Shown here piece after piece: positions 1 to 11,143 of a stretch of DNA of 22,875 nt; position 1 is the first letter of the stretch; each line of letters starts with the position of its first letter. Source of the DNA: a virus (lineage: Duplodnaviria; Heunggongvirae; Uroviricota; Caudoviricetes); the IMG/VR virus record IMGVR_UViG_2651869748_000003, positions 1 through 22,875 of that record, one strand, 5' to 3'. A model generated the notes under the pieces. That model was not told the origin of the DNA. It saw only the letters and a list, made by a program, of their open reading frames with translations, and ran no database searches. The translations under genes were made by a program, and so were the position numbers.

Positions 1-517
1 CACCAAGCAGAGCAATAAAACCTGGTCCCTGACGCATCCGGTGGATGACGCAATTACCCTGCTGACACAGGGCGGCAGACTGACCTGTAAGTTCCGCCTC
101 TCAGGCGCACTGACCAACAATCAGTTCGGGCTGGGGATTTATCTGTATACCGATGTAGCGTTACCTGACGTCGTGGCGATGACCGGGACTGGTAACCCGT
201 TCCTGATGTCGTTCTTCACCCAGACCACAGACGGCAAACTGAATCTGATGCATCACAAGAAAGCCGGAAACACAAAGTTGGGCGAGTTCGGGAATTACAG
301 TAACGACTGGCAGACGCTGGAGCTGGTGTTCACCGCCGGCAGTGCCACGGTTACTCCGAAACTGAATGGAGTGGCTGGCCCGGCATTCCAGGTCATAAAA
401 GACAGTCTGACACTGGGGCTGAATGCGCTGACGCTGACGGATATTACCAAAAATGCAGCGTATGGCGTTGAGATAGAAAGTCTGGTGCTGGAGATAAATG
501 CACCGGCATCATCATAA
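1..517 (+). CDS. Hypothetical protein, 5'-partial (reading frame open to the window edge; ORF track starts it at GTG 41)
   Basis: Frame is open from nt 2 with no stop before the GTG at 41, so the gene probably begins upstream of the window. No recognisable motif; not lambda-like; sits immediately upstream of the lysis cassette where lambdoid phages often carry morons. Confidence 0.45.
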   Translation, partial: TKQSNKTWSLTHPVDDAITLLTQGGRLTCKFRLSGALTNNQFGLGIYLYTDVALPDVVAMTGTGNPFLMSFFTQTTDGKLNLMHHKKAGNTKLGEFGNYSNDWQTLELVFTAGSATVTPKLNGVAGPAFQVIKDSLTLGLNALTLTDITKNAAYGVEIESLVLEINAPASS

Positions 518-603
518 AAAGTGAGCCAGCCAAATGGAAGGTATCGTTAAACTCACCGGTAGTGTCAGTGGGTCGTCTGAGATGCCTGCATGAGTTATCA
601 GAG

Positions 604-632
604 CCATCAGTACTTAACTGGTGGCTTTTTTT
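604..632 (+). terminator. Candidate rho-independent terminator (possibly tR'-like) upstream of the holin
   Basis: Stem CCATCAG (604-610), loop TACTTAA, stem CTGGTGG (618-624; one G-U pair), followed by CTTTTTTTATT. Lies between the upstream ORF stop (517) and the holin start (668). Confidence 0.5.
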
Positions 633-667
633 ATTGTTGTCAGCTTCCGGATAACGGGAGACGGGGT

Positions 668-883
668 ATGTACCAGATGGAAAAAATCACAACAGGTGTG
701 TCATACACCACGTCAGCGGTGGGAACGGGCTACTGGTTCCTGCAGTTGCTGGACAGGGTTTCCCCGTCTCAGTGGGCGGCAATAGGCGTGCTGGGGAGTC
801 TGCTGTTTGGGCTGCTGACATATCTGACTAACCTGTATTTCAAAATCAGAGAGGACCGTCGTAAGGCGGCGCGGGGAGAGTAA
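668..883 (+). CDS. S: Class II holin (phage 21 S21-type pinholin), 71 aa, dual-start motif MYQM
   Basis: Two predicted TMDs ([20 protein letters not shown] and [23 protein letters not shown]) and a charged C-terminal tail ([13 protein letters not shown]); close to the S21/EssD sequence as I recall it. GGGAG at 655-659 is 8 nt upstream of ATG 668. The ORF-track start at ATG 590 has no SD and would read through the 604-632 hairpin. Confidence 0.9.
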
Positions 884-2114: not shown

Positions 2115-2579
2115 ATGAACCGCGTACTGTGCGTGGTCATCATTGCCCTGCTGGTGGCCTGTGGTGCGCTTAGTCTGGGGCTGAATCATTACCGTGATAA
2201 CGCCATTACCTACAAAGCCCAGCGCGACAAAAATGTCAGAGAACTGAAGCTGGCGAACGCGGCAATTACTGACATGCAGATGCGTCAGCGTGATGTTGCT
2301 GCGCTCGATGCAAAATACACGAAGGAGTTAGCTGATGCGAAAGCTGAAAATGATGCTCTGCGTGATGATGTTGCCGCTGGTCGTCGTCGGTTGCACATCA
2401 AAGCAGTCTGTCAGTCAGTGCGTGAAGCCACCACCGCCTCCGGCGTGGATAATGCAGCCTCCCCCCGACTGGCAGACACCGCTGAACGGGATTATTTCAC
2501 CCTCAGAGCGCGACTGATAATAATGCAAAAACAACTTGAAGGGGCACAGCTATACATTCGAGAGCAATGCCTCAGATAA
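2115..2579 (+). CDS. Rz: i-spanin Rz (inner-membrane spanin subunit)
   Basis: N-terminal TMD ([18 protein letters not shown]), coiled-coil-like periplasmic region, Rz1 embedded in the +1 frame. Similar to lambda/DLP12 Rz as recalled. Confidence 0.9.
2335..2517 (+). CDS. Rz1: o-spanin Rz1 (outer-membrane lipoprotein), wholly embedded in Rz
   Basis: AAGGAG at 2322-2327 is 7 nt upstream of ATG 2335. Signal peptide with lipobox LVVVGC; proline-rich mature part ([15 protein letters not shown]); 60 aa as in lambda Rz1. Confidence 0.85.
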
Positions 2580-2886
2580 AAACCGGCCAAGGATAATCCG
2601 CTGAAGATTCGCCGGTGGCTAAAGTGTGCCAAGAGTTCAATTTACGCAATTACTCCAGTCGATGCTATGCACCGTCTTTGTGAAGTCAATGGATACCTGA
2701 TTTATTTCTGTGCGCTGTATCGTCGCTGTACTCTTGCATTAATTATGACTGTAGCCTGACGGGGAACTCCTTCTGCACAAGTGTGGGGGAATAATCAAAA
2801 ACGATGCACACCGGGGTTACCGGGTACACATATTTCATCATGCCAGCGAGTCCGGTTCTGGCACGGAAGAAACCGGACGTTATGAT

Positions 2887-3297
2887 TTAGTGCGGAAATA
2901 TTTGTGTAGTGTTCTGAATGTTCTCAGTAAAGAGTAATGAATTATCAAAGGTATAGTAATACCTTTTGTTTTCGTGGATATTTGTAATCCATCTGAAAAC
3001 CCCTGCTGTAGCAAGATTTTTCCTGTATTCGTAAAATGATAACTCTCCTGATTTGAATCCTTTTAAGGTGGCTTCTATAAGGCATTTATTTTTTGAAAAT
3101 CTTACATTTACAACCTTACCCTGTCCTTTTATTAAAACCGTATTATCGTTTTCAAGAACAAGATGAATATTCTCTGTGGCTAAATAGTAAATGTAATGTG
3201 AGACATTGTGACGTTTTAGTTCAGAATAAAACCAGTGATAGTTTAAATTATTTCGCACTTTATCGAATATTTGTTTAAAAATGGCAACCTGAGCCAT
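2887..3297 (-). CDS. DUF1398-like protein (lambda right-end ORF / E. coli YbcV-YdfO family), about 136 aa
   Basis: Minus-strand ORF in the AT-rich segment. Start chosen at the second Met (MAQVAIFK...) because GGAAGG lies 7 nt upstream; the track start at 3312 has no SD. Resembles the lambda right-end ORF and YbcV as recalled. Confidence 0.75.
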
Positions 3298-3354
3298 TGT
3301 AGTACCTTCCATGTGATATGAGGGGGCGTAGTCTGCACGATTATCTAAATTGCT

Positions 3355-3588
3355 TCAATCTGGTCTGACCTGTTTTCTGAGCAATTCAGTAATGTCACTC
3401 TTTTCTTTGTTTGCTTCAGGCGAAACTCTTTTTACTGAGCACAGTCTCCGGCGGCAGGCTTCAATGACCCAGGCTGAGAAATTCCCGGACCCTTTTTGAA
3501 CAAGAGCGATGTTAATTTGTTCAATCATCTGGTTTGGAAATCGGATGTTGCGGGTTGTTGTTCTGCGGGTTCTGTTCTTTGATGACAT
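3355..3588 (-). CDS. Small ribbon-helix-helix-like protein (YlcI/YnfO, DUF3950-like; lambda right-end ORF homolog), 77 aa
   Basis: GGGGA is 6 nt upstream of ATG 3588 on the minus strand. Arg/Thr-rich N-terminus, then a strand-helix-GxS-helix pattern (NIRFPNQMIEQINIALVQKGSGNFSAWVIEACRRRL). Same position and orientation as the lambda right-end ORF as recalled. Confidence 0.75.
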   Translation of the reverse strand: MSSKNRTRRTTTRNIRFPNQMIEQINIALVQKGSGNFSAWVIEACRRRLCSVKRVSPEANKEKSDITELLRKQVRPD

Positions 3589-3794
3589 AATGTTTCCCCA
3601 TATTCAGTGTTGCTGATTTGTATTATCTGAAGTTGCTTTTACGTTAATTTGACGCAGATCAATCAATACGATACCTGCGTCATAATTGATTATTTCTCGT
3701 GGTTTGATGGCGTACACACATGTTGTGATAAACCTTATATAGATGATAATCATTATCATTTCGTGGGTCCTTTCCGGCGATCCGGGCCGTTACG

Positions 3795-4499: not shown

Positions 4500-6399
4500 T
4501 ATGGTGGCCGCCGTTTCGGTTGCGCTGCAGCCTCTGGTCAGGGTTGTACCGATGACGGCAGTTGAATGGGCTGACCAGTATTATTATCTGCCGAAAGAAT
4601 CCTCATACGGTGACGGCGAATGGAAAACGCTGCCGTTCCAGATCGCCATCATGAACAGTATGGGGAATGATCAGATCCGCACTGTTAATCTGATTAAATC
4701 TGCCCGTGTTGGCTATACAAAGATGTTGCTGGGAGTCGCCGGGTATTTTATTGAGCATAAATCCCGAAACAGTCTGCTTTTTCAGCCCACGGATTCTGCC
4801 GCTGAAGATTTTATGAAGTCTCACGTGGAGGCGACGATTCGGGACGTGCCATGCCTGAAAGATCTTTCCCCGTGGCTGGGTCGTAAACATCGTGACAATA
4901 CTCTCACGCTGAAACGCTTTTCATCGGGGGTGGGCTTCTGGTGCCTGGGTGGTGCGGCAGCAAAAAACTACCGTGAAAAATCCGTGGACGTGGTCTGCTA
5001 TGACGAACTTTCCTCGTTCGAGCCGGATGTCGAAAAAGAGGGCTCGCCAACCCTGCTGGGGGATAAGCGTATTGAGGGCTCGGTATGGCCAAAATCCATT
5101 CGCGGCTCGACGCCTAAAATAAAAGGCTCCTGCCAGATCGAAAAAGCGGCCAACGAGTCGGCGCATTTCATGCGTTTTTATGTGTCCTGCCCGCACTGTG
5201 GGGAGGCGCAGTATCTGAAATTTGGCGATGAGTCCACGCCTTTTGGCCTTAAATGGGAGAAGGACAGCCCCGAAAGCGTTTTCTACCTCTGTGAACATCA
5301 TGGCTGCGTGATCCATCAGTCTGAGCTTGACCAGAGCAACGGGCGGTGGATCTGCGAAAACACGGGCATGTGGACCCGCGACGGTCTGACGTTTTTCAGC
5401 GCCGCGGATAATGAAATTCCGCCGCCGCGCTCCATCACATTTCATATCTGGACGGCGTACAGTCCGTTCACCACCTGGGTACAGATTGTCTATGACTGGC
5501 TGGATGCACTGAAAGATCCCAACGGCCTGAAAACCTTTGTGAACACCACGCTGGGCGAGACCTGGGAAGAGGCCGTGGGCGAAAAACTCGATCACCAGGT
5601 GCTGATGGATAAGGTGGTGCGTTACACGGCGACGGTGCCTGCCCGGGTGGTTTATCTGACGGCGGGCATTGACTCGCAGCGAAACCGTTTTGAGATGTAT
5701 GTCTGGGGATGGGCTCCGGGAGAGGAAGCCTTTCTGGTGGATAAAATCATCATTATGGGGCGTCCTGATGAGGAAGAGACGCTGTTACGTGTGGATGCGG
5801 CGATCAACAAAAAATACCGCCATGCGGATGGCACCGAAATGACTATTTCCCGTGTCTGCTGGGACACCGGGGGGATCGATGGTGAAATTGTTTATCAGAG
5901 ATCAAAAAAACACGGTGTTTTCCGGGTGCTGCCGGTAAAAGGCGCATCTGTCTATGGCAAGCCGGTGATCACCATGCCAAAAACCCGCAATCAGCGGGGC
6001 GTGTATCTGTGTGAAGTGGGAACGGACACCGCAAAAGAAATTCTCTATGCCCGTATGAAAGCCGATCCCTCGCCTGCGGATGAAGCCACGTCGTATGCCA
6101 TCCGTTTTCCTGATGATCCGGAGATTTTTTCGCAGACAGAGGCGCAGCAACTGGTGGCGGAAGAGCTGGTGGAGAAGTGGGAAAAAGGAAAGATGCGTCT
6201 GCTGTGGGATAACAAAAAGCGGCGTAACGAAGCGCTGGACTGCCTGGTGTATGCCTACGCGGCATTACGTGTGTCCGTGCAACGCTGGCAGCTTGATCTG
6301 GCTGTACTGGCAAAATCCCGGGAAGAAGAGACGACCCGGCCAACCCTGAAAGAACTGGCAGCGAAGCTGTCCGGAGGAGTGAATGGTTACAGTCGCTGA
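4471..6399 (+). CDS. A: Terminase large subunit (lambda gpA homolog), 642 aa
   Basis: Collinear similarity to lambda gpA as recalled (TAVEWAD..YYLPKES, KSARVGY.KMLLGV, WCLGGAAAKNYREKSVDV, GDKRIEGSVWPKSIRGSTPK). Start set at ATG 4471 (MNISEQQ...), matching the lambda Nu1/A overlap; the track's upstream start at 4414 is unlikely. Confidence 0.95.
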   Translation: MNISEQQLNNMVAAVSVALQPLVRVVPMTAVEWADQYYYLPKESSYGDGEWKTLPFQIAIMNSMGNDQIRTVNLIKSARVGYTKMLLGVAGYFIEHKSRNSLLFQPTDSAAEDFMKSHVEATIRDVPCLKDLSPWLGRKHRDNTLTLKRFSSGVGFWCLGGAAAKNYREKSVDVVCYDELSSFEPDVEKEGSPTLLGDKRIEGSVWPKSIRGSTPKIKGSCQIEKAANESAHFMRFYVSCPHCGEAQYLKFGDESTPFGLKWEKDSPESVFYLCEHHGCVIHQSELDQSNGRWICENTGMWTRDGLTFFSAADNEIPPPRSITFHIWTAYSPFTTWVQIVYDWLDALKDPNGLKTFVNTTLGETWEEAVGEKLDHQVLMDKVVRYTATVPARVVYLTAGIDSQRNRFEMYVWGWAPGEEAFLVDKIIIMGRPDEEETLLRVDAAINKKYRHADGTEMTISRVCWDTGGIDGEIVYQRSKKHGVFRVLPVKGASVYGKPVITMPKTRNQRGVYLCEVGTDTAKEILYARMKADPSPADEATSYAIRFPDDPEIFSQTEAQQLVAEELVEKWEKGKMRLLWDNKKRRNEALDCLVYAYAALRVSVQRWQLDLAVLAKSREEETTRPTLKELAAKLSGGVNGYSR

Positions 6400-6589: not shown

Positions 6590-8178
6590 AACGAACGCCT
6601 GTCCTGATTGATGTGAACGGCGTTCCGCTTCGTGAGAGTCTCAGCTACAACGGGGGCGGTGCAGGATTTGGCGGGCAAATGGCGGAGTGGTTGCCACCGG
6701 CGCAGAGTGCCGATGCAGCCCTGCTGCCTGCGTTGCGTCTGGGGAATGCCCGGGCAGATGATCTGGTGCGCAATAACGGAATAGCGGCCAATGCGGTGGC
6801 ACTGCATAAGGATCACATTGTCGGGCATATGTTTCTTATCAGCTACCGTCCGAACTGGCGCTGGCTGGGGATGCGGGAGACCGCAGCAAAAAGCTTTGTC
6901 GATGAGGTGGAGGCGGCCTGGTCGGAATACGCCGAAGGGATGTCTGGCGAGATCGACGTGGAAGGAAAACGCACGTTCACGGAATTTATCCGTGAAGGTG
7001 TGGGCGTTCATGCGTTTAACGGCGAAATCTTTGTGCAGCCGGTCTGGGATACGGAAACCACGCAGTTATTCCGTACGCGTTTTAAAGCCGTGAGTCCGAA
7101 ACGGGTGGACACGCCAGGACACGGTATGGGGAACCGTTTTCTGCGGGCCGGTGTGGAGGTCGATCGATATGGTCGTGCCGTTGCGTACCATATCTGTGAG
7201 GATGATTTTCCGTTCTCCGGGAGTGGACGATGGGAACGGATCCCGCGTGAACTTCCCACCGGGCGTCCGGCCATGCTGCATATTTTCGAGCCGGTGGAGG
7301 ACGGGCAGACCCGTGGGGCCAATCAGTTTTACAGCGTAATGGAACGGCTGAAGATGCTCGATTCCCTGCAGGCAACACAGCTTCAGTCGGCCATAGTGAA
7401 GGCGATGTATGCAGCGACGATTGAAAGTGACCTTGATACCGAAAAGGCCTTTGAATATATCGCCGGTGCGCCGCAGGGGCAGAAGGATAATCCGCTTATT
7501 AATATTCTGGATAAGTTCTCCACCTGGTATGACACGAATAACGTGACGCTGGGTGGTGTCAAAATTCCGCACCTTTTCCCCGGGGATGATCTGAAACTAC
7601 AGACTGCGCAGGATTCAGACAATGGATTTTCGGCGCTTGAACAGGCGCTGCTGCGGTATATCGCCGCCGGTCTTGGCGTTTCCTACGAACAGTTGTCCCG
7701 TGATTACTCGAAGGTCAGTTATTCAAGTGCCAGGGCCTCTGCCAATGAGTCGTGGCGCTATTTTATGGGGCGGCGAAAATTTATTGCGGCCCGGCTGGCC
7801 ACGCAGATGTTTTCCTGCTGGCTGGAAGAGGCACTTCTTCGGGGGATTATCCGTCCGCCACGGGCGCGTTTTGATTTTTATCAGGCGCGATCAGCCTGGT
7901 CACGGGCAGAGTGGATTGGTGCCGGAAGAATGGCCATTGACGGGCTCAAGGAGGTTCAGGAATCGGTGATGCGCATTGAGGCCGGACTGAGCACGTATGA
8001 GAAAGAGCTGGCGCTGATGGGCGAGGATTATCAGGACATTTTCCGCCAGCAGGTCAGGGAATCTGCAGAGCGGGAAAAAGCCGGACTCTCACGTCCGGTG
8101 TGGATAGCGCAGGCGTATCAGCAGCAGATAGCGGAGAGTCGCAGGCCGGAAGAGGAGACAACACCCCGTGAGACGTAA
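6586..8178 (+). CDS. B: Portal protein (lambda gpB homolog)
   Basis: Extensive collinear similarity to lambda gpB as recalled (GNARADDLVRNNG, FEPVEDGQTRGAN.FYSVME, LQSAIVKAMYAATIES, GSGRMAIDGLKEVQE). Confidence 0.95.
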   Translation: MKRTPVLIDVNGVPLRESLSYNGGGAGFGGQMAEWLPPAQSADAALLPALRLGNARADDLVRNNGIAANAVALHKDHIVGHMFLISYRPNWRWLGMRETAAKSFVDEVEAAWSEYAEGMSGEIDVEGKRTFTEFIREGVGVHAFNGEIFVQPVWDTETTQLFRTRFKAVSPKRVDTPGHGMGNRFLRAGVEVDRYGRAVAYHICEDDFPFSGSGRWERIPRELPTGRPAMLHIFEPVEDGQTRGANQFYSVMERLKMLDSLQATQLQSAIVKAMYAATIESDLDTEKAFEYIAGAPQGQKDNPLINILDKFSTWYDTNNVTLGGVKIPHLFPGDDLKLQTAQDSDNGFSALEQALLRYIAAGLGVSYEQLSRDYSKVSYSSARASANESWRYFMGRRKFIAARLATQMFSCWLEEALLRGIIRPPRARFDFYQARSAWSRAEWIGAGRMAIDGLKEVQESVMRIEAGLSTYEKELALMGEDYQDIFRQQVRESAEREKAGLSRPVWIAQAYQQQIAESRRPEEETTPRET

Positions 8179-9709: not shown

Positions 9710-10057
9710 ATGGTAACGAAAACCATCACTGAACAGCGTGCGGAAGTACGTATTTTTGCCGGTAATGATCCGGCTCATACCGCCACAGGCAGCAGCGGGA
9801 TTTCCTCGGCAACACCGGCACTGACGCCCCTGATGCTGGATGAAGCCAGCGGGAAACTGGTGGTCTGGGACGGACAGAAAGCCGGTAGTGCAGTTGGCAT
9901 ACTGGTACTGCCGCTTGAAGGCACAGAGACGGTACTGACCTATTACAAGTCGGGGACCTTTGCGACGGAGGCAATCCGCTGGCCTGAAAGTGTGGATGAA
10001 CACAAAAAGGCAAATGCCTTTGCCGGCAGTGCCCTGAGTCACGCGGCGCTGCCGTAA
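9710..10057 (+). CDS. D: Head decoration protein (lambda gpD homolog)
   Basis: NDPAHTATG...TPLMLD...KLV.WDG...AVGIL...TL..YKSGTF matches lambda D as recalled; AGGAGG 18 nt upstream. Confidence 0.95.
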   Translation: MVTKTITEQRAEVRIFAGNDPAHTATGSSGISSATPALTPLMLDEASGKLVVWDGQKAGSAVGILVLPLEGTETVLTYYKSGTFATEAIRWPESVDEHKKANAFAGSALSHAALP

Positions 10058-10065
10058 CACGTTAT

Positions 10066-10085
10066 CAGGCCACCGCGGTGGCCTG
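10066..10085. promoter_or_regulatory. Perfect 20-bp GC-rich palindrome CAGGCCACCGCGGTGGCCTG between D and E (candidate RNA stem-loop or protein-binding site)
   Basis: Self-complementary sequence seen directly in the 57-bp D-E intergenic gap; followed by ACTGATTTCT. Confidence 0.4.
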
Positions 10086-10114
10086 ACTGATTTCTGAATG
10101 AAAGGAACTGATTT

Positions 10115-11143
10115 ATGGGATTGTTTACGACCCGCCAGTTACTCGGTTATACCGAACAAAAAGTGAAATTTCGTGCGCTGTTTCTGGAGCTGTTTTTCCG
10201 CCGTACGGTGAATTTCCATACCGAAGAGGTGATGCTGGACAAAATTACCGGAAAAACGCCGGTGGCGGCCTATGTCTCCCCGGTTGTTGAAGGAAAAGTG
10301 CTGCGTCATCGTGGTGGTGAAACCCGCGTGTTACGTCCGGGCTACGTCAAGCCGAAACACGAATTTAATTACCAGCAGGCGGTTGAGCGTCTTCCCGGTG
10401 AAGATCCGGCTCAGCTGAACGACCCGGCCTACCGTCGTCTGCGTATCATCACTGATAACCTCAAACAGGAAGAGCACGCCATTGTCCAGGTGGAAGAAAT
10501 GCAGGCGGTGAATGCCGTGCTGTATGGCAAATACACGATGGAAGGAGACCAGTTCGAGAAAATTGAGGTCGATTTTGGCAGGTCGACGAAGAATAACATC
10601 ACTCAGGGTAGTGGTAAGGAGTGGTCAAAACAGGATCGTGACACGTTCGATCCTACACATGATCTTGACCTCTACTGCGACCAGGCCAGCGGTCTTGTGA
10701 ATATTGCCATTATGGACGGTACCGTCTGGCGTCTGCTGAATGGCTTTAAATTGTTCCGCGAAAAACTGGATACCCGTCGCGGCTCTAATTCGCAACTCGA
10801 AACAGCGGTGAAAGACCTGGGCGCGGTGGTGTCCTTCAAAGGGTATTACGGCGATCTGGCCATTGTGGTGGCAAAAACGTCTTATGTGGCAGAGGACGGT
10901 ACCGAAAAACGTTATCTGCCTGAGGGCTCGCTGGTCCTGGGGAATACGGCAGCAGAGGGCATTCGTTGCTATGGTGCCATTCAGGATGCGCAGGCGTTGT
11001 CCGAAGGTGTGGTGGCCTCTTCCCGTTATCCGAAACACTGGCTGACGGTAGGGGATCCCGCCCGTGAATTTACCATGACGCAGTCCGCGCCGCTGATGGT
11101 GTTGCCGGACCCGGATGAGTTTGTGGTGGTACAGGTGAAATAA
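10115..11143 (+). CDS. E: Major capsid protein (lambda gpE homolog)
   Basis: Collinear similarity to lambda E as recalled (PGYVKPKHE, DPAYRRLRII, YTM.G..F, NITQ..G.EWSK.D..T.DPT, DPAREFTM.QSAPLM). Confidence 0.95.
   Translation: MGLFTTRQLLGYTEQKVKFRALFLELFFRRTVNFHTEEVMLDKITGKTPVAAYVSPVVEGKVLRHRGGETRVLRPGYVKPKHEFNYQQAVERLPGEDPAQLNDPAYRRLRIITDNLKQEEHAIVQVEEMQAVNAVLYGKYTMEGDQFEKIEVDFGRSTKNNITQGSGKEWSKQDRDTFDPTHDLDLYCDQASGLVNIAIMDGTVWRLLNGFKLFREKLDTRRGSNSQLETAVKDLGAVVSFKGYYGDLAIVVAKTSYVAEDGTEKRYLPEGSLVLGNTAAEGIRCYGAIQDAQALSEGVVASSRYPKHWLTVGDPAREFTMTQSAPLMVLPDPDEFVVVQVK

Follow-up and report, generated by a model that had tools for sequence, protein, structure and literature searches.

A conserved terminator-type hairpin between a NanS-p-type esterase gene and the holin gene of a Stx-type lambdoid prophage

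Late gene expression in lambdoid phages depends on the antiterminator Q, and polymerase modified by Q resists the terminators that it meets downstream. For Stx phages the published order of the late region is Q, pR′/tR′, tRNAs, stx, nanS-p and S (PMC10462455; PMC8065619). In these phages pR′ is constitutive and its transcript ends at tR′, which lies 258 nt downstream of pR′ and next to Q; StxS, a late transcript that is terminated prematurely, functions as an sRNA, and the tRNAs of the late region have a primary start site of their own in Stx2 lysogens (PMC7547250). The nanS-p gene is co-induced with the late genes, rising by 1–2.4 log with mitomycin C in parallel with stx2a (PMC10462455). The C-terminal domain of NanS-p has been described as a lectin-like jelly-roll carbohydrate-binding module (PMC10462455; PMC8065619), and in the homologue from phi24B the N-terminal DUF1737 domain reportedly decorates the T=9 capsid (bioRxiv 10.64898/2026.04.10.717836).

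Here we consider the boundary between the accessory genes and the lysis genes in a 22,875-nucleotide stretch of a Caudoviricetes record (IMG/VR IMGVR_UViG_2651869748_000003, positions 1 to 22,875), referred to below as the window. Over positions 1–900 the sequence matches a prophage of E. coli O111:H2 strain 12A at 100% identity and Stx2-converting phage 86 (NC_008464) at 98.2%, and O55:H7 strain DEC5D has an identical holin protein and the same 150-nt spacer between the esterase and holin genes. The identity to 12A is complete to about 5.6 kb (window position 5616), stands at about 98% thereafter and is lost by an indel or mosaic break past about 10–11 kb; the best full-window match in the E. 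coli collection is 95.5% over 96%. The junction comprises the following features, each given with the evidence for it.

1–517, plus strand: 3′ end (last 171 codons and stop) of a NanS-p/YjhS-type SASA sialate O-acetylesterase gene, as judged from Pfam, PDB and RefSeq.
518–599, no strand assigned: spacer from the esterase stop to the hairpin, in which no gene, promoter or known RNA was detected.
590–667, plus strand: spurious, non-coding N-terminal extension of the holin (in-frame ATG survey, hairpin crossing, start of the Pfam model).
600–635, plus strand: predicted intrinsic (Rho-independent) terminator (terminator scan, RNA fold, folding of variants, covariation).
644–660, plus strand: leader stem-loop CUUCCG/CGGGAG (644–649/655–660), whose 3′ arm holds the Shine-Dalgarno sequence GGAG (657–660), predicted from a fold of 633–690.
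668–883, plus strand: class II holin S of the phage 21 S family, with a dual start at Met1 (ATG 668) and Met4 (ATG 677), from Pfam PF04971 and RefSeq.

Frame 2 is open from the edge of the window to a TAA at 515–517 (171 codons), the entry in the list of open reading frames being 41–517. An earlier sequence-only reading had held that this frame, open to the window edge, does not encode Q, and this was borne out: the sole Pfam match of the 171 residues is DUF6645 (E 3.6e-20, 72.6 bits against a cutoff of 27), and the Q families PF03589, PF06530 and PF06323 gave no match to the truncated frame in the Pfam search. The homology search proposed in that reading instead points, in both Pfam and PDB, to the C-terminal domain of a NanS-p/YjhS-type esterase. 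As the window is cut before DUF1737 and SASA, these domains were read from the 12A relative, whose full-length protein of 617 amino acids comprises DUF1737, SASA and DUF6645. It matches NanS/YjhS (PDB 3pt5) with E 1e-122 and, over residues 421–613, the crystal structure of the NanS-p C-terminal domain (PDB 6yp6) with E 4e-30; by the annotation of the 12A and phage 86 records, the frame forms the end of a ‘SASA family carbohydrate esterase’. By these matches, positions 1–517 encode the C-terminal lectin-like domain (DUF6645) of a NanS-p/YjhS-type SASA esterase. [quoted passage not shown] Activity as a 9-O-acetyl sialic acid esterase is known for the homologues only (PMC8065619). The head genes of this prophage are of the lambda type and encode a decoration protein of their own (window 9710–11143), whereas in phi24B it is DUF1737 that reportedly decorates the T=9 capsid.

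In 12A the genes run in the order RusA, a 180-aa DUF1133 protein, a small ORF, a DNA methyltransferase, tRNA-Ile/Arg/Arg, an empty stx slot, the esterase and the holin; those that are intact share one strand. The DUF1133 protein matches the phage antitermination Q family PF06530 weakly, though above the gathering score (28.2 versus 26 bits), and is annotated as Q in phage records that are about 80% identical; it is likely to be the Q of this type of prophage. Directly 3′ of its gene lies a two-hairpin leader (−36.7 kcal/mol, z = −5.4), the end of which, GAACCCG...CGGGUU followed by U7, resembles the terminator tR′. Gene and leader occupy 4704–5360 in the closest relative (L002), with the terminator at 5326–5354, and the leader is a candidate for a short pR′–tR′ RNA comparable to StxS. 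At 7175–7664 of the same relative, between the tRNA genes and the esterase, where Stx phages have stxAB, there is a pseudogene fragment only. L002 is a stx-less prophage with the late-region architecture of a Stx phage. Other relatives (L092, L093, L094 and 933W) have Q genes of other families. All the examined relatives with a record long enough to show it have Q on the strand of the hairpin, about 2.7–5 kb upstream of it, and in those with an identical junction the distance is about 2.7–4.4 kb; the position of Q and pR′ for the window is taken from these relatives. The suggestion that late transcription might be organised differently here is not sustained, as the gene order is that of the published Stx-phage late regions.

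The same comparison decides the fate of another proposal of the sequence-only reading, namely that the hairpin acts as tR′; it would then be the first terminator after a late promoter just upstream, and the esterase would sit outside the late operon. In lambda no terminator other than tR′ is known between pR′ and S, which counts in favour of this proposal, as does the finding that in the scan the hairpin is the last structure before S. Against it, the relatives with an identical junction have Q kilobases upstream, and in 12A the Q gene is followed by a terminator of its own. In addition, a consensus scan found no plus-strand promoter-like site upstream of the hairpin within the window (1–600). 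The hairpin should not be equated with tR′, because Q and a separate terminator lie kilobases away in the relatives and positions 1–600 hold no promoter-like site. The location of tR′ beside Q in Stx phages, 258 nt downstream of pR′ (PMC7547250), and the co-induction of nanS-p with stx (PMC10462455) also speak against it, and we regard the proposal as extremely improbable. A search for phages with Q immediately upstream of an S21-type holin, which bears on a possible origin of the hairpin from an ancestral phage-21-type tR′, retrieved none.

The hairpin itself pairs A600–U611 with A617–U628 in a stem of 12 pairs, five of them G–C, around a 5-nt loop (612–616); the core is a 9-bp stem (602–610/618–626), and the U-tract at 626–632 (U7) is followed by AUU. 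It has the G+C-containing stem, the short loop and the 3′ U-tract of at least five residues by which intrinsic terminators are recognised. The RNA folds with −17 kcal/mol (z = −3.84), and one of 200 shuffled sequences folds as well. The terminator scan detects the hairpin, although four terminator-like sites were observed in 3.5 kb against 3.7 in shuffles, so that the scan alone does not rise above chance; it is conservation with compensatory changes, described below, that makes the hairpin more than a chance structure. From the end of the U-tract it is 35 nt to the holin ATG at 668 and 24 nt to the Shine-Dalgarno GGAG. The sequence-only reading, which placed a clean intrinsic terminator 35 nt before the Shine-Dalgarno sequence, was right about the type of hairpin, whilst its distance is the one to the start codon. 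With a single copy in the window, the hairpin is not a repeated palindromic element, a possibility ruled out on this ground.

For comparison we assembled 85 holin 5′ flanks, consisting of the window, annotated phage and genome loci and 80 viral contigs, which reduce to 26 distinct sequences. All 26 fold at the same place, with −16 to −23 kcal/mol. In an alignment of 17 variants over an 11-pair helix, 95.7% of the cells are paired, a figure that drops to 44–65% when the 3′ partners are slid. Compensatory changes are present in six of the 11 pairs (for example AGCCAUCAG/CUGGUGGCU versus GACCAUCGG/CCGGUGGUC), and the covariation score was matched by none of 500 shuffles. These compensatory changes argue that the pairing is held by structural selection and is not merely hitch-hiking.

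The position of the hairpin is constant as well. When window positions 518–690 were searched against 50,697 phage records, 315 matched; the spacer is common to 10 of them, and in 305 the similarity starts at window position 598 or 620, either at the hairpin or within it. In 933W and a Stx1 phage, two extra small ORFs stand between the esterase and a homologous hairpin. The prophages PP2 and PP5 of E2348/69 and the sister prophages L092 and L093 have the same hairpin family (GCCGUCAGUG...CACUGGCGGC and a U-tract), about 50 nt before the holin despite spacers of 290–450 nt, and in PP5 the hairpin persists beside an IS that has replaced the holin. Since the same family occurs at the same distance behind different upstream genes, the hairpin appears to belong to the 5′ flank of the holin, whatever gene lies upstream, and it is not simply a moron's own terminator, one of the options put forward in the sequence-only reading. 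More distant S21-type holins have terminators of unrelated sequence at the corresponding position (one is annotated in Ayreon, and cdtI and DLP12 show others); none of the hairpins that precede the holins of Ayreon, cdtI, DLP12 and ev245 is a homologue of the window hairpin. A literature search found no explicit description of an S-proximal terminator, and the 933W record has no annotation of one.

The U-tract is degraded in several variants (to CUCUUGUUG or ACUUGUUG, for instance), and so efficient termination has not been uniformly maintained. One subgroup (GGGGC/GUGUCGG...CUGAUGCCCC; L009–L011, L019, L034, L046 and L060) combines many G–U pairs with such a degraded tract (CUCUUGUUG or ACUUGUUG), and its members are possibly weaker terminators before the lysis genes. 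The poor U-tracts are one reason to consider that the hairpin might mainly stabilise mRNA 3′ ends or mark a recombination-module boundary, with little termination, its conservation then being a matter of hitch-hiking with the holin module. Mosaic joints that fall exactly at the hairpin agree with this, as does a fragment of the E2348-type hairpin within the spacer (GTCAGTGGGT, 563–572), which suggests past recombination. The compensatory changes in six of 11 pairs are hard to reconcile with hitch-hiking, however, and the U7 of the window allele is that of a textbook terminator; the presence of non-homologous terminators at the same position in other phages is a further argument against this account, which we consider unlikely.

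In the spacer between the esterase and the hairpin, the scan found no promoter-like or terminator-like site on either strand; for 506–600 it found no minus-strand terminator or sRNA, and the minus-strand fold is unremarkable. Rfam gave no meaningful match, either for the whole window at gathering thresholds or for 400–800 at E up to 10. The 10-nt string at 563–572 (GTCAGTGGGT; GUCAGUGGGU) is identical to 10 nt in the 5′ arm and loop of the holin-proximal hairpin of the E2348/69 type (GCCGTCAGTGGGTGACACTGGCGGC), and may be a recombination scar or a partial duplication of the hairpin.

In other prophages this slot is occupied. PasA and PasC are Hfq-dependent sRNAs of EPEC E2348/69 prophages that map to the esterase–holin spacer (PMC8550237 Table S6; bioRxiv 10.64898/2026.05.13.724894), on the strand opposite to esterase and holin by their published coordinates (PMC8550237). 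We observe them on that opposite strand in the spacers of L089 (NC_011601.1 743415–743499, minus strand), L090, L092 and L093, of which L092 and L093 are sister prophages more divergent from the window. The window, 12A, DEC5D and Stx2 phage 86 share the short 150-nt spacer without PasA or PasC. A blastn-short search of the window for PasA and PasC (word size 7, E up to 1) returned the trivial GGCTTTTTTT tail only, and both sRNAs were set aside for this allele; a comparison of PasA, PasC, PasD2 and the intergenic regions of E2348/69 with the window and its relatives revealed no similarity apart from the U-tract. The spacer of the window appears to be a short, Pas-free allele of a slot that holds PasA/PasC or extra small ORFs in sister prophages.

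This occupancy raises the question of whether the hairpin could chiefly be the 3′ Hfq module of a plus-strand sRNA from the esterase 3′-UTR (about 518–632), termination before the holin being secondary. A stem-loop followed by U7 is typical of such a module, the slot encodes the Hfq-dependent PasA/PasC in sister prophages (PMC8550237; bioRxiv 10.64898/2026.05.13.724894), and StxS, which derives from a prematurely terminated late transcript, provides a precedent in Stx phages (PMC7547250). PasA and PasC, however, lie on the opposite strand and lack similarity to the window, Rfam gave no match and no promoter was found in the spacer. Moreover, the spacer upstream of the hairpin is unconserved across the phages that bear the hairpin, and in E2348/69 no sRNA was called on the plus strand beside the homologous hairpin, where one interaction is on record. 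We consider this improbable. A combined version, in which the plus strand of about 518–632 would be an Hfq-binding sRNA in the PasA/PasC slot and the hairpin would double as its 3′ module and as a safety gate for the lysis genes, seems to us decidedly improbable.

The holin gene that follows is well defined. Its product matches PF04971 with E 9e-33 (112.5 bits), the dual-start motif Met1-Tyr-Gln-Met4 can be read directly, and many Stx phages have a protein that is 100% identical. A Shine-Dalgarno sequence lies 7 nt before ATG 668, and the RefSeq coordinates of the holin are 668–883. The list of open reading frames nevertheless includes a 97-aa frame, 590–883, which runs across the hairpin, as the sequence-only reading had pointed out; with the RefSeq start at 668, the call from ATG 590 is an over-extension. 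The 25 loci with a spacer of the window type and three others have an upstream ATG in frame, which 54 of 82 loci lack, and in the 71-aa protein the match to the Pfam holin model begins at residue 5. We take the extension to ATG 590 for an ORF-calling artefact.

Dual-start holins are known to use RNA structure in their leaders, for which lambda sdi and S21 are the models. The leader here contains a second stem-loop, at 644–660, in which the helix is 99% paired and is near-invariant among the 17 variants, so that covariation cannot test it. By analogy it is likely to exert sdi-type translational control of the Met1/Met4 dual start: it would mask the holin ribosome-binding site and act as a translational element separate from the 600–632 hairpin. 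Whether the upstream hairpin might itself regulate holin translation in the manner of lambda sdi deserves mention, since it too lies within the leader of a gene of the class that uses leader structure. It ends 24 nt upstream of the Shine-Dalgarno sequence and makes no contact with it, however, and the Shine-Dalgarno sequence is already sequestered by the stem-loop at 644–660; a translational role for the hairpin at 600–632 is thus very improbable.

The reading that we prefer, with a probability of roughly 0.7, is that the hairpin is a terminator within the Q-antiterminated late operon, which would stop Q-independent transcription before the lysis cassette and be read through after induction. 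The esterase would form part of an accessory block (methylase, tRNAs, stx or an empty slot, esterase) between the Q/pR′/tR′ module and the lysis cassette. In the lysogenic state, polymerase starting at Q-independent late-region promoters would halt at 600–632 and leave S, R and Rz untranscribed; such transcription might come from the tRNA promoter, from toxin or esterase promoters or from leakage through tR′. On induction, Q-modified polymerase from pR′ would pass 600–632 and the other late-region terminators, giving a single late transcript that spans the esterase, lysis, head and tail genes. The rise of nanS-p by 1–2.4 log with mitomycin C, parallel to that of stx2a, fits this scheme. Points against it are the degraded U-tracts of several variants, a number of terminator-like sites in the region no higher than in shuffles, and the failure of the simple scan to find a Q-independent promoter for the esterase. 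The identity of the frame, the hairpin with its conserved pairing and constant position, and the presence of Q upstream in the relatives come from the comparisons above, whereas termination in vivo, read-through by Q and a protective role of the hairpin are what we infer.

The sequence-only reading had also considered, as one alternative, that the upstream gene is a moron inserted between pR′ and S. This comes close, as an accessory block does stand at that place in the relatives with a terminator behind it, and the G+C content of the esterase gene (55–57%) is about 5 points higher than that of its flanks (47–52%). A simple consensus scan found no Q-independent promoter of its own, however, and the label is debatable because nanS-p is co-induced with the late genes and because the N-terminal domain is reported as a capsid decoration in phi24B.

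Downstream of the holin, the window has several further features. A DUF1327/YdfR gene (888–1232) is inserted between holin and endolysin; in 933W, R follows S directly, and the corresponding frame of phage 86, at 807 nt, is longer. A 13-pair hairpin (AAAACCCCGTTTG...CAAGCGGGGTTTT) lies at 1907–1939, downstream of the endolysin gene and ahead of Rz; flanked by an A-run on its 5′ side and a T-rich stretch on its 3′ side, it resembles a bidirectional terminator, and this is the position of the ant gene in 933W and phage 86. An A+T-rich island (36–42% G+C against about 50%) extends from about 2500 to 3700 (L002 11500–12700), between Rz and the terminase gene, and its minus-strand genes, DUF1398 (2887–3297) and ynfO (3355–3588), have the look of a moron-like insert on the opposite strand.

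Taken as a whole, the layout appears to be the ordinary and already known architecture of Stx-type lambdoid prophages of E. coli. The gain is mainly one of annotation, in that the holin start is placed at ATG 668 and the truncated frame is assigned to NanS-p. The late operon, antiterminated by Q, would have several terminators, this hairpin among them, with no sign of an unusual late-gene layout. A modest addition is the covarying family of terminators directly before the lysis cassette across Stx-type prophages. Such a hairpin would keep Q-independent transcription of the accessory genes from reaching the holin, and where the U-tract is weakened, as in some variants, spontaneous lysis and toxin release could be affected.

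Among described systems, the junctions of phage 86, 12A and DEC5D are the closest to that of the window (98.2–100% over 1–900), with the same C-terminal variant of the esterase, the 150-nt spacer, the hairpin and the holin; phage 86 differs from 12A in having stx2AB directly upstream of the esterase, a slot that is empty in 12A. The NanS-p proteins of 933W and phi24B (vb_24B_21, gp84) share DUF1737, SASA and DUF6645 with the 12A relative and are likewise encoded just upstream of the lysis cassette, but the C-terminal domain of 933W NanS-p is 37% identical to that of the window, and the lambda-type head with its own decoration protein sets the window prophage apart from the phi24B capsid. PasA/PasC of E2348/69 occupy the same esterase–holin slot in L092 and L093, on the opposite strand, and are missing from the window. 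Like the predicted terminator of the window, lambda tR′ is an intrinsic terminator upstream of S in the late operon, and the window hairpin too would be expected to be overridden by Q-modified polymerase; unlike it, tR′ lies directly after pR′ beside Q and yields a short constitutive RNA, whereas the window hairpin is placed kilobases downstream, behind accessory genes. Finally, the esterase resembles the morons of lambdoid phages in being an accessory gene of higher G+C content with a terminator after it, but morons have their own promoter, whereas expression of the esterase follows induction and its terminator co-varies with the flank of the holin.
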